This document shows positions 40-5,730 of a stretch of 63,845 nt of DNA, piece after piece. The translations under genes and the position numbers were made by a program. Within the stretch, counting starts at the first letter, position 1; every line of letters starts with the position of its first letter. Where the stretch lies: assembly GCA_030264375.1 (NCBI GenBank), contig JASCQW010000112.1:58329637-58393481 (forward strand), in the 5' to 3' direction. The DNA comes from Carcharhinus longimanus. Taxonomy: Eukaryota. Below the pieces are notes generated by a model. It searched no databases and had not been told where the DNA came from. It saw only the letters and a list, made by a program, of their open reading frames with translations.

Positions 40-189
40 ATCAGAGATAAAGTCCGTGCTCTACAGGATGAGAGAGCGAGCTTGTACCGTCACTGGGAAT
101 TGAAGAAGAACTGGTTGGAGAAGATGTTATTGCAGCAGCTTTTCTACAGAGACAGCAGCCAAATGGAAAAGATCATGAACTCTCAGGAG
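40..189 (+). CDS. SPTBN5: SPTBN5 coding exon (window exon 1), phase 0/0
   Basis: ttctag| ... |gtaggt; IRDKVRALQDERASLYRHWELKKNWLEKMLLQQLFYRDSSQMEKIMNSQE, spectrin repeat helix C/A junction. Confidence 0.93.
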
Positions 190-860: not shown

Positions 861-2768
861 AGAACCCACTCCCAGCTGGCAAGATCCAGGATTGAGGAGT
901 GAGAGAGAGTTGGGCAACAAATCCACTCCCAGAAAGTTTGGGGTAGGGGGGTAGTTGACAACTTAATGGAGGTGGGACTATTAGATCCAGTTTACCTGCT
1001 TCACCTTCCTCTCCACACCCCTGATCCTTCTGAATCCCCTTACTCCCCCAGCCTTTCAGTCTCTCTCACTGATATTTCCAATCTATCACCCAAAACTCCT
1101 GTCAACCCTCCAACCCTTTGATGTATTCTCTAGCCCCCCTACCTCCTAACCCCACCAGCCGATCATTCCAATCATCCACATAATGGCTGCCGATTAAGAT
1201 CAGTAAGAATCTCACAAAGCCAGGTTAAAGTCCAACATTTGGTATAAAATCAATCTGTTGGACTTTAACCTGACGTTGTGAGACTTCTTGCTGTGCTTAC
1301 CCCAGTCTAATGCCGGCATCTCCACATCATGATTAAGACCAGAACAGAGCTCACTTCCCACTGACCCCATCCACTAATTGGTTGCCAAACTGTCCACAGA
1401 GTCATTAAAACCCCAAACCCTGTGAAAATCACACTCCGTGGGAGGTGAGGTTGTGACTTACAGTCAGACCCCGCCTTCCAATTCCCACCTCCAGCAGGAA
1501 AATCCACCATTAGTTTCCCTTCTTGAGAGGCTAGAAGCCTTGTTTACAACCTTGTTTATCTCATAGTGCCATCTGAGTCTGAACACACTCTCATTTATAT
1601 TGCAGCATTGTCTCTGAGCGTGCACAGTCGCTGGTTTATCTTAGTGCTGTCTCGTGTGAGTGTGAACACACTCATTTATATGACAGCAGTGTCTCTGTGT
1701 GACTGTGAAGACTCTCTTGTTAACATCACTGTCATATTCAGGTTGCATTCACATAGTCACAGGTTTGACTGCACTGCTGTCGGCAGTGTCACTATCTGCC
1801 CTGGAAAACTAAAATATTGGTGAGCTGATGTTTACACTCCTGCACAACTGGGGAATACTCCGCCTCAAGTGGTTTTTGTCATCTTGCAGATTTGGCTGCA
1901 ATGGTTTGTAGGTTTAGATAGGAGCGAAAAAGAATTGTTGTTGAGCTGTTAAACCCTGAGTAAGTAAGGTGAGAATACATTCAAACAAGTCCCTGAGGTT
2001 TGCCCGGACAGGGTTTAGTCTGAATACCTCCCACAAAAAAAGTACAAGGAGAAAATTTCCACTGAATTGAACAACCACCTCTACAGTTAATGAGCACATT
2101 CATTTGTCAGAGAGTACTGCAGAGTGGTGACAGCTTGTTGGCTGCATTTGGAGGTCAGAAATAGTGCACATTTAATATGGGTTAATGGAGCCTGTGAGGC
2201 ATTTCATATGTAAGTGCATGAAGGATTTAGGAAGTAAAAGCTTTAAGGCAGGCTACGTAATCCAGCAGCTCAACTACAGTTCCGTGTGGTCATTGAGACA
2301 GGGTGTCTGAATCAAGTGTCGCATCACTACCATGTTCTGCCAGAAAGACCCTTTCAAAGTTTTGATTGCTCAGCTTTTGAGTTTTTTTTGCATTCCTGAC
2401 GAAATAGGAGGAGGGAGCCAATTTTCTCAGAGCTTGCTGTCGTTGACATTTTTTAAAGAAGGAAAGCCTGCCTCGAGAAGAAAAGGTTTGATCCAGCAGA
2501 CTCTCGTAGGGATAGCAGCATGTACCCAGAAGCAGCCAGGCTCCCAGGAATCGAGATGCTGCTCAGATGCTCTCTGGCTCGTGCAGTGGTCTTATGCTCT
2601 TTAACTAACTCCCTGGTTTTTCTTTCTTGTGACGGCCTGTACTGGACTTGGTCTCCTTTGATAGTTCATGGTTAAATAAGTGAATCTGATGCTCCAGGAT
2701 GCTGCTGCGTCAATGCTTTGCCTCATTCGGTGAATCTCTTTTCCTGCTCAACAATCCTCGCAGACTTC

Positions 2769-3953
2769 ATGGCTGAAAAGTTGGACACTGAGAGATTAAA
2801 AATGTTGAGTCGGGAACATGGGAAAAGAGTCCAGCGTTTCACGGTATGTAAAAAGCTTTGGCCAGCTCCTGCAGGAACACCATTGCCCTCACGCTCGGTT
2901 TCAATGTTGACCTCAGCACCTGCAGCAGAAGCAGCCACTCCTGCTCGTCGTGTCTCAAGAATGGACATCACCTTGGCTTCCGCCTTGCCAGCATCGACAG
3001 CACCCCATCTCTCCGCCTCCGATGCGACACCCTCTGCCCAGAGCACGCATCCAAGGTCATCATGTGCGGATGCTACTGAAGGGACAACCCCTGCAGAGCC
3101 CAACTCTCCTACACACCCCCTGGTGAGTTCTGAATCTGGGGGGGCAGCATTCTGTCAGAGCTGCAAACCTGGAGTTTCCAAGAAGGAGAGGACTGTAGCA
3201 GTACACCAGATCGCATCATCATCTCTCCCTTTGCTGTCCCCTTCTGCAACAAAGGTCATTCAGAAAGCTGACAGTGGATGGTTGCAGCCAAGGGTTTCAA
3301 AACCACTTTGGGTGCCTGTTGACCAGCCCTGCCACATTGTGCCAGCACATCGGGTCAGCAGACTGCAAGTCACTTTGGCTGCTGCACAGAACATGCCAAG
3401 ACATCACGTTGCCTCATTGACTGTCACCCCACAGTCCCCAGTGCATACCACAAGCCACCAAAGCTCCATTCATAACTCACCTGGACACTCTCGATCGAAC
3501 AGCCCTACGCGGGCATTGGGTGTGATTCCCACTGCCGCTCCACCAGCTCACTTTTCTCAAACAGTGCTTGTGTTACAGGGACACCCAGAGCTCAACGAGA
3601 CTAGTCAGCCAGACAAGGTCTCCAGCTGTACTCTAAATTGTATCTTCAATTCCTCTCTCATCAATGGCTGCGGCCCCATGATCTCCATCAGCCTAACTCC
3701 AGCTCGGGCTAAGGACAAGTTTCCTGAGGGTGACACTGAGACCAGGGCAGGTACAAGGACTAGTTGCTCATCTCAGAACGTTGCTGCACTTTCTGAAGCC
3801 AAGCCTCAACTTGTAGAGAAGGTGGAAAACCTCCCCATGCAGTGCACTTGTGGCAGCAAAGATCATCGCTGGATGACGGAAAGTAACCCACTAGGCATCG
3901 GTTTTCACTCTGGGTACAAGGAGACTAACTGTAGCACTCCCAGTGTGCTGCAG
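2769..3953 (+). CDS. Candidate alternative first coding exon (395 codons, S/P/T/A-rich, probably disordered) in SPTBN5 intron 1
   Basis: Frame is stop-free from 2676 to the gap at 4002; pyrimidine tract plus CAG at 2761-2763; ATG at 2769; phase-0 donor CAG|GTATCC at 3953/3954 compatible with exon 5008; no TE protein motifs recognised. Confidence 0.55.
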
Positions 3954-4579
3954 GTATCCTGCGGGAAATCAATGAGCTTATTTCTAAAGGTTAGACCACA
4001 TNNNNNNNNNNNNNNNNNNNNNNNNNNNNNNNNNNNNNNNNNNNNNNNNNNNNNNNNNNNNNNNNNNNNNNNNNNNNNNNNNNNNNNNNNNNNNNNNNNN
4101 NNNNNNNNNNNNNNNNNNNNNNNNNNNNNNNNNNNNNNNNNNNNNNNNNNNNNNNNNNNNNNNNNNNNNNNNNNNNNNNNNNNNNNNNNNNNNNNNNNNN
4201 NNNNNNNNNNNNNNNNNNNNNNNNNNNNNNNNNNNNNNNNNNNNNNNNNNNNNNNNNNNNNNNNNNNNNNNNNNNNNNNNNNNNNNNNNNNNNNNNNNNN
4301 NNNNNNNNNNNNNNNNNNNNNNNNNNNNNNNNNNNNNNNNNNNNNNNNNNNNNNNNNNNNNNNNNNNNNNNNNNNNNNNNNNNNNNNNNNNNNNNNNNNN
4401 NNNNNNNNNNNNNNNNNNNNNNNNNNNNNNNNNNNNNNNNNNNNNNNNNNNNNNNNNNNNNNNNNNNNNNNNNNNNNNNNNNNNNNNNNNNNNNNNNNNN
4501 NNNNNNNNNNNNNNNNNNNNNNNNNTCATTGCAGTATTAAAGTAAGCCTATCTGTGACTAATAAATAAACTTTTTAAAC

Positions 4580-4720
4580 TATCCATCACACTCCTCGGGC
4601 AGGTTAAACACAGATTAGATGGAGCGTAAAGCTTCCTCTACAATGTTCCATCAAACACTCTTGGGACAGATACAGCACAGGCTAGGTACAGGATAAAGCT
4701 CCCCCTACAATACGCCTCAG
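4580..4720. repeat. Dispersed or tandem repeat unit, also at about 29410-29525
   Basis: ccatcaaacactc..ggacag.tacagcac.gg.tag.tacag..taaagctccc.ctaca. Confidence 0.55.
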
Positions 4721-5007
4721 CTCAATTCTTTGAATGATATCTATCACCTTTCCCTTTTCGCAAACCATCCTCTTTGTGTACTGTGTGGAAAAAGCAGTGC
4801 ATTTCTGTAGCACATTTGAGTCCAGTGGGGTAAGTTGTCAGGCACAGGGCTAAAACGTCTCTAAAACTATCTGACTGTGTTTGAACATGAAACAATTTGC
4901 GAGTCATCATTGATGGCAAGCGAGGATAACTGGAATTGATAAACAAATACACAGAGTGAAGTGTGCAGAAAGACAGTGAGTGTTCATTGACTGCAATTTT
5001 ATTTCAG

Positions 5008-5112
5008 GTTTACCTAAGGTCTAGTGAACTGGGGACATCCGTGGACACTGTGGATTCTCTCATCAAACGGCATGAAGCCTTTGAGAAATTGCTGACAACT
5101 CAGGAGGAAAAG
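5008..5112 (+). CDS. SPTBN5: SPTBN5 exon 2, phase 0/0
   Basis: tttcag| ... |gtaaat; VYLRSSELGTSVDTVDSLIKRHEAFEKLLTTQEEK. Confidence 0.95.
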
Positions 5113-5340
5113 GTAAATCAGGCCATGTCCAAATCAAACAAGATTAAATTGAATGGAGGGGTTGAAAAGGCACTACAAGAATCTGGAAAGATTGTGAGTT
5201 TATGTAACTAGAATTATCCACTCACATGGAATGGAAGTTCTGTCATAAACTGGTGTGGCCCAGTCACCTGTTTTTTGTTATAACCTTGTATGTTTCTAAC
5301 TCCGTGAATGGTCATGATTAACTTAACAGGGATTGAGCAG

Positions 5341-5730
5341 CATTTAACTCTCTTTGGGTAGGCTGAGCTGTGTTTAACTCGTTCAGAAAGGGTTAGTCTG
5401 TGTTTAACATTCTCAAAATGTGTCAGGCTGTGTTTAACATGTTCAGGATACGTCAGGTTATATTTAACATGTTTAGGGTACATCAGGCTGTGTTTAACAT
5501 GTTCAGGATATGTCAGGTTGTATTTAACATGTTGAGGGTACATCACGCTATGTTTAACATATTTAGGATACGTTGGGTTGTATTTAACATGTTTAGGGTA
5601 CATCAGGCTGTGTTTAACATGTTAAGGATATGTTGAGCTTTGTTTAACATGTTCAGGATGGTGGAGGCTGTGTTTAACTCTCACAGGCTGGACCAGATAG
5701 TCTTTAATTCTCTCAGGTTAGCTGCGTTGT
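5341..5730. repeat. 30-bp minisatellite, about 13 units, with a 60-bp dimeric core
   Basis: Units align in 30-nt register: tgtttaacatgttcaggatatgtcaggttg alternating with tatttaacatgtttagggtacatcaggctg. Confidence 0.92.

Follow-up and report, generated by a model that had tools for sequence, protein, structure and literature searches.

Internal promoters that swap N-termini are known for dystrophin, plectin and the nesprins, and giant disordered exons rich in Ser, Thr and Pro are found in ankyrins as internal cassettes. Chicken TW260 was considered as a candidate for the short form proposed below and dropped, because it forms long actin-binding tetramers. Among the beta-spectrins, mouse betaIV-Sigma6 (Sptbn4) is an N-truncated product of an internal first exon, and the study describing it calls this type of isoform unique to betaIV (PMC2199236). 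All beta-spectrin isoforms except the truncated betaIV forms are described as starting with an F-actin-binding domain and a dimer nucleation site (PMC13545430). Full-length betaV and betaH (SPTBN5, karst, sma-1) carry two CH domains, about 30 repeats (30 in heavy betaV) and a tail with PH-like exons (PMC3249148), and the C-terminal repeats of Drosophila betaH self-associate, the same being predicted for betaV (PMC13545430). The exon reported here lies in an intron of a shark betaV gene, and it differs from betaIV-Sigma6 both in belonging to heavy betaV instead of betaIV and in contributing about 400 residues of its own, whereas betaIV-Sigma6 has non-coding first exons and starts at an internal spectrin methionine (PMC2199236). 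Since the shark exon is coding, the form proposed below would be a variant of the betaIV-Sigma6 type and not a member in the strict sense. Its head is also unlike the short forms of dystrophin, which have only short N-termini of their own, and as a proposed first exon it is unlike the giant exons of ankyrins.

The window, that is, the whole stretch of DNA analysed, comprises 63,845 nt of Carcharhinus longimanus (GCA_030264375.1, JASCQW010000112.1); all coordinates refer to it and to the + strand unless stated. An earlier note, made from the letters of the window alone, had pointed to a frame without stops from 2676 to the assembly gap at 4002, and this frame is indeed present on the + strand, with 442 codons. 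Its length is as unusual as had been stated: no other N-free open frame in a 264-kb region around the window is as long, the next one having 269 codons, and 1000 rounds of dinucleotide shuffling of 2401-4001 produced longest frames with a median of 127 and a maximum of 281 codons. Just upstream of the open stretch, a TAA at 2673-2675 closes the frame of the head. The other signals named at the same time, namely an ATG at 2769, two phase-1 acceptors (AG ending at 2763 and 2697, exon starts at 2764 and 2698) and the phase-0 end of exon 40-189, are likewise found in the sequence. High-copy repeats occupy 547-850, 1230-1330 and about 4540-4700 and are heavily covered in all four runs of one comparison, and a 30-bp tandem repeat of 10.4 copies lies at 5367-5678, in the intron after exon 5008. 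The gap of 100 N at 709-808 is flanked by the same 26 bases on both sides and is probably an assembly artefact. That 1401-2100 and 4726-4900 are uncovered in all four runs of one comparison is no evidence by itself.

Judged by its sequence, the host gene is a heavy beta-spectrin (betaV/betaH), with a CH pair and about 30 repeats, not 17. Tandem CH domains of the beta-spectrin type are encoded upstream, with Pfam CH in four exons (three above the cut-off), and the top five solved-structure matches of the CH2 exon are beta-spectrins. A hand count from Pfam positions and translations gave 29 spectrin repeats (15 upstream, the junction repeat, and 12 full and one partial downstream), and one further repeat probably lies in a 3-kb assembly gap; given the 12 full repeats before the final partial one, the junction repeat would be repeat 17, assuming 30 in total. 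The dynamic-programming gene model missed exons and misplaced some borders, and therefore repeat counts and sizes are hand-curated estimates. A C-terminal PH domain gave no Pfam match and a single solved-structure match at E 0.9; three short exon-like frames past the repeats resemble PH strands by eye. Between the last repeat and these frames, 5.6 kb past the window end (L012:5561-6367), lies a second long open frame, of 269 codons and rich in Ser and Pro, which had no Pfam match and no migfilin-like motif and is probably the non-repetitive betaV tail exon. About 46.5 kb upstream of the window (L006), the rough gene model alone gave a candidate for a short charged exon, situated between repeats 5 and 6; in invertebrate betaH an SH3 domain is located at this point. 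The intron holding the open frame interrupts one repeat, between exons 40-189 and 5008-5112. Exon 5008 enters the repeat model at about position 22 of 105, so that a short isoform starting in this intron would be devoid of most of helix A in that repeat.

Table 1. Features of the betaV intron and its flanking exons (coordinates of the window).
Feature	Position	Strand	Remarks
Upstream betaV exon	40..189	+	Phase 0 at both ends; end of a spectrin repeat and helix A of the junction repeat; skipped in the proposed short isoform
Putative 5' leader	2498..2801	+	5' edge approximate; contig starts
Alternative exon, coding part	2802..3989	+	Open frame; synonymous excess; indel-free; orthologs; no Pfam family; mean pLDDT 32
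Most conserved block	2814..2921	+	N-terminus of the head, RVQRFTVC..LWPAP..TP...RSVS.L; invariant columns of the three-species alignment
Motif copy 1	2946..2981	+	RRVSRMDITLAS; candidate beta-strand docking motif, migfilin-like
Motif copy 2	3348..3383	+	HRVSRLQVTLAA; internal repeat of copy 1
Candidate donor GTATCC	3954..3959	+	Unused in X18, X20 and X22 contigs
Intron of the alternative form	3990..5007	+	Donor GTTAGA at 3990, acceptor TTTCAG at 5007; assembly gap 4002-4525
First shared spectrin exon	5008..5112	+	Pfam PF00435 positions 23-56, E 6e-4

Splicing of the alternative exon was assessed in seven of 22 listed runs (X18 in two comparisons), all of them contigs, with the best-matching run, X1, outside the seven and X19 giving two short pieces only. 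The runs come from relatives about 93-99% alike over the open frame and from unspecified tissues; no run is recorded as RNA, and for X18, X20, X21 and X22 this nature is deduced from spliced joints and from cover confined to exons. A contig of X22 passes directly from 3574-3987 to 5006-5114 and, because both 3988-3989 and 5006-5007 read AG, the joint falls at 3989/5008, in frame, with the donor GTTAGA (AAG/GTTAGA). In X18, a contig covering 3096-3992 carries a loose end of 25 letters identical to 5011-5035 of the window. Accordingly, the alternative exon is spliced onto an internal spectrin exon in two of the seven runs (X18 and X22), from two studies and two coded organisms. A contig of X20 likewise stops matching at 3987 and has 37 further letters after that point. 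The DNA run X12, from the same coded organism as X18, continues past 4001 into the intron, and thus the joint reflects splicing and not a genomic deletion. A long contig of X18 ends on exon 40-187 followed by 30 further letters, which is consistent with the canonical 189/5008 path operating alongside the alternative one. The earlier note had placed the donor 12 codons before 3989, at 3953 (CAG/GTATCC); the motif is in the sequence, but contigs of three runs (X18, X20 and X22) pass through it unspliced and a 3953-5008 junction is seen in no contig, hence this donor was rejected. Donor scores, calculated with generic splice weights, were 3.0 at 3989 versus 0.7 at 3953.

A search of 1.84 billion cluster representatives with the head as a single-sequence query returned two matches at E up to 0.001, both in sharks and none outside them: GCC16942.1 of Chiloscyllium punctatum (E 2e-33), annotated as 'hypothetical protein, partial' and not named as betaV, and g20948.t1 of Rhincodon typus (E 2e-29). 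Both are orthologs of the exon, with heads 41 and 45% identical to that of the window in the three-species alignment. The whale-shark protein ends on the residue just before the 3989 donor, and in the bamboo-shark model, built on a 16-kb contig, automated annotation had already fused the head to the spectrin exon that begins here at 5008, using a predicted donor about 26 codons before 3989; the spectrin part of that protein is 87% identical over 94 residues. Conservation of the head takes the form of blocks with in-frame gaps between the distant sharks: 106 of 407 positions are invariant among the three species, in seven blocks split by linkers whose lengths vary by tens of residues. Both ortholog proteins begin at a methionine aligned with ATG 2802, as chosen by gene predictors, and the conserved start is therefore probably 2802 and not the ATG at 2769 proposed previously. 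Consequently, the predicted head would measure 396 residues (2802-3989), or 407 from 2769, where 395 had been announced. As to the novelty of such an isoform, no description of a betaV form with an internal start was found in the mainly open-access literature searched, yet the automated bamboo-shark model holds the fusion and N-truncated forms of betaIV are known.

The exon is under purifying selection. The tables of differences comprise the best-supported 40 of 152 and 40 of 164 rows, and yielded 32 distinct rows in the open frame, 24 from one comparison and eight more from the second. Of these 32 listed substitutions, 19 are synonymous and 13 non-synonymous, with no stop, where about 30% synonymous would be expected (p 5e-4), and the rough omega is 0.31, uncorrected for multiple hits. 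The other two + frames gave 9/32 and 4/32 synonymous changes. As the listed rows are mostly common to several relatives, they reflect the branch of the window species itself. Likewise, all eight indel rows of one comparison fall at 1415-2381 and none in the open frame; X16, which differs in 117 letters over 1674-4001, shows seven indel events, again none in the open frame (p 0.013), and every aligned piece of the frame in both comparisons is free of gaps. The putative leader, 2382-2768, is indel-free as well; this zone begins upstream of the open frame, and part of the constraint is thus non-coding.

The head is rich in Ser (14%), Ala (10%), Pro (10%) and Thr (8%); AlphaFold2 modelled it with a mean pLDDT of 32 and a pTM of 0.17 on an alignment of only three rows, and the low pLDDT is consistent with disorder or with the shallow alignment. 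A solved-structure search with the head profile had no matches to E 10, a search of a protein atlas gave no usable match, and Pfam assigned the open frame to no family. Within the head, two blocks are repeated, RRVSRMDITLA and HRVSRLQVTLA, with the pattern R-x-V-S-x-hydrophobic-x-hydrophobic-T-L. The two copies are the best self-match in the window head, at a level reached by none of 300 shuffles; in the orthologs they are not the best self-match, and shuffles reached the ortholog level in 83 and 18 of 300 cases. This pattern is reminiscent of the migfilin peptide PEKRVASSVFITLAPP, residues 8-18, whose binding site is the CD face of filamin repeat 21 (PMC4554727). Ligands of filamin pair with it as an added beta-strand in which hydrophobic residues alternate (PMC10164935; 10.1101/2025.05.02.651884), and a screening preprint reports no obvious sequence similarity among them (10.1101/2025.05.02.651884). 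The motifs share with migfilin a basic residue followed by Val, Ser, alternating hydrophobics and I/V-T-L-x-P, and differ from it in that the distance from R-V to the strand is one residue shorter and, in the window species, in the following Pro being absent. In the orthologs the best match of the migfilin 12-mer falls at the repeated motifs (p 0.0014 and 0.0044), whereas in the window head it falls at another site (p 0.044; 0.21 for a 10-mer); these p values overstate the likeness, since it was spotted ahead of the scoring and concerns one of many known motifs. Scores of the two copies are 19-30 in the orthologs, against 19 and 13 for the window, and the summed score was reached by three of 5000 permuted motifs. 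On these sequence resemblances, filamin is our best guess for the partner of the head motifs, a tentative one that we regard as possible and no better. The genome of C. longimanus itself contains three filamin genes (contigs C105, C130 and C162), each with one exon holding two nearly whole Ig repeats.

A different action of the head, within the same exon and isoform, appears to us about equally possible: its blocks may form a small beta or metal-binding domain, or serve as kinase or acylation sites, with no docking on a partner such as filamin. Six of the 13 cysteines are invariant, AlphaFold2 places short strand pairs at residues 287-309 and 357-368 (pLDDT about 25-30), and R-x-x-S is a common kinase consensus. 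Against a folded head stand the lack of a confident fold at a pTM of 0.17, from the three-row alignment, and the differences of tens of residues in linker length among species.

At the 5' end of the exon, contigs of X18, X20 and X21 start at 2498, 2515 and 2545, with all letters aligned and no loose ends, and pass the 2697 and/or 2763 acceptors unspliced, while the DNA runs X12 and X16 extend upstream of about 2500; at a depth of 2 to 5, these starts are a weak hint of a transcript start near 2500. The 2697 acceptor, which a G>A change destroys in all three runs covering the site in one comparison, was rejected as an entry point on account of this loss in relatives. Over the leader, CpG observed/expected is 0.44-0.51 against a regional median of 0.22 (0.51 is reached by 2.6% of 507 windows), a mild enrichment, and a scan of this region found no TATA box, GC box or formal CpG island. 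Nine ATGs are found in the leader (2520, 2556, 2567, 2594, 2668, 2689, 2699, 2713 and 2769), relatives gain an extra one at 2678, and eight to nine upstream ATGs in a leader of about 300 nt would hinder scanning. The first of them opens an upstream frame, 2520-2675, of 51 hydrophobic, Cys-containing codons in the frame of the head, closed by the single TAA at 2673; among the listed differences (best 40 of 152 and best 40 of 164) none changes this stop, the read-through or loss of which would lengthen the head by the upstream frame. In mouse, deletion of exon 2 lowers the 3' exons 53-60 in testis (10.1101/2021.02.01.427491), which makes a strong internal promoter less likely in that tissue.

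Instead of starting a short isoform, the open frame could be a cassette of full-length betaV, joined by exon 40-189 or by a small exon, so far unseen, that corrects the phase, so that the CH domains would be kept and the junction repeat would contain a long disordered loop. In-frame AG acceptors with pyrimidine tracts are indeed present at 3042, 3255 and 3435, the deeper X18 contig begins at 3096 with a depth of 8 versus 2 further 5', and contigs drop rare joints, the joints and loose ends known being those among the rows listed. However, contigs pass all three acceptors unspliced, the X18 contig starting at 3096 has no 5' loose end (all four X18 pieces are listed), and the strong 2763 acceptor is in phase 1 whereas exon 40-189 ends in phase 0. 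Furthermore, both orthologs start at an aligned methionine, and the most conserved stretch (2814-2993) lies upstream of these acceptors, which, like the in-frame stop at 2673 and the phase clash with exon 40-189, we count in favor of a first exon. A cassette is in our opinion improbable.

Slightly less probable still is a non-productive RNA, with a retained or poison exon (entered, for example, at the 2459 acceptor) being spliced to 5008 and left untranslated, and the open frame arising as a by-product. The many upstream ATGs, the in-frame stop at 2673, the low depth of 5' contigs and an indel-free zone that already begins at 2382 would all suit such an RNA, but the synonymous excess is limited to the frame of the head, 442 codons are open, and distant sharks conserve the blocks at the protein level with in-frame gaps. 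An exonised transposon or captured gene fragment with no function as a spectrin head, suggested by homologs in only two sharks (among cluster representatives) and by flanking repeats in the same intron (depth peaks at 526-875, 1226-1400 and 4376-4725 in four runs), is very improbable in view of purifying selection, the low depth of the open frame in runs with a depth of 1e4-1e5 over the flanking repeats, the lack of a Pfam family and a single copy in its own genome, where the locus itself was the one DNA match and the one significant protein match. This agrees with the earlier note, which recognised no transposon motifs, and led us to reject a recent multicopy element, with the reservation that absence of further matches in the search tool does not prove rarity.

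We therefore return to the reading of 2802-3989 as a conserved coding exon, spliced in frame onto exon 5008 in related sharks, which would be the first coding exon of a betaV isoform with an internal start, a disordered head and docking motifs, and we consider it probable. The internal-start isoform of the earlier note is retained in that a coding exon, and not a simple cassette, joins exon 5008 in frame, but with its boundaries shifted to a donor at 3989 and a start at 2802. A promoter near 2500, inside the intron, would drive its transcription; alternatively, a non-coding upstream first exon may be spliced to 2764 in other tissues and lead to the same protein. Translation from ATG 2802 would yield an N-truncated betaV of roughly 2,100-2,300 residues, an estimate based on 396 plus at least 1,586 codons of the listed exons, several exons being missing from that sum. 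Missing from this short betaV would be both CH domains, the repeats that nucleate the alpha/beta dimer and about 16 repeats; what would remain are 12 full repeats, a final partial one and the tail. When compared with full-length betaV or betaH, the short form would thus be deprived of the F-actin-binding domain and the dimer nucleation site and keep what corresponds to segments 20-33, among them the self-interaction segments 25-31 as well as the head-to-head site (PMC13545430). Since the region kept corresponds to these self-interaction segments, the short form could pair through its C-terminal half and not bind F-actin directly. The head may act as a flexible tether, its conserved motifs adding a beta-strand to a domain of a partner, for which filamin is the candidate named above, and short betaV may serve as a membrane or trafficking scaffold, anchored through the short motifs of its head rather than through F-actin.

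No vertebrate spectrin is understood less well than betaV, which is regarded as one giant chain. A conserved and selected exon which replaces the actin-binding end suggests that at least one vertebrate lineage probably maintains a heavy spectrin devoid of CH domains for a purpose, and would extend the design of betaIV-Sigma6 to a second gene, with a large domain of its own in addition. This fits the C-terminal self-association of betaH (PMC13545430), in the region that the short form would keep. A bolder and unlikely extension is that sharks, and perhaps other vertebrates with a diverged head, possess a second heavy spectrin in which actin binding is replaced by a disordered head with several filamin-binding strands; if true, betaV dimers would be tied to actin via the force-gated sites of filamin, that is, in a mechanically switched spectrin network. 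The mouse knockout study assumes CH-less betaV products to be non-functional (10.1101/2021.02.01.427491). The present finding raises the question of what the orthologous intron holds in other vertebrates, and both 5' knockouts and data obtained with C-terminal antibodies may be open to re-reading.
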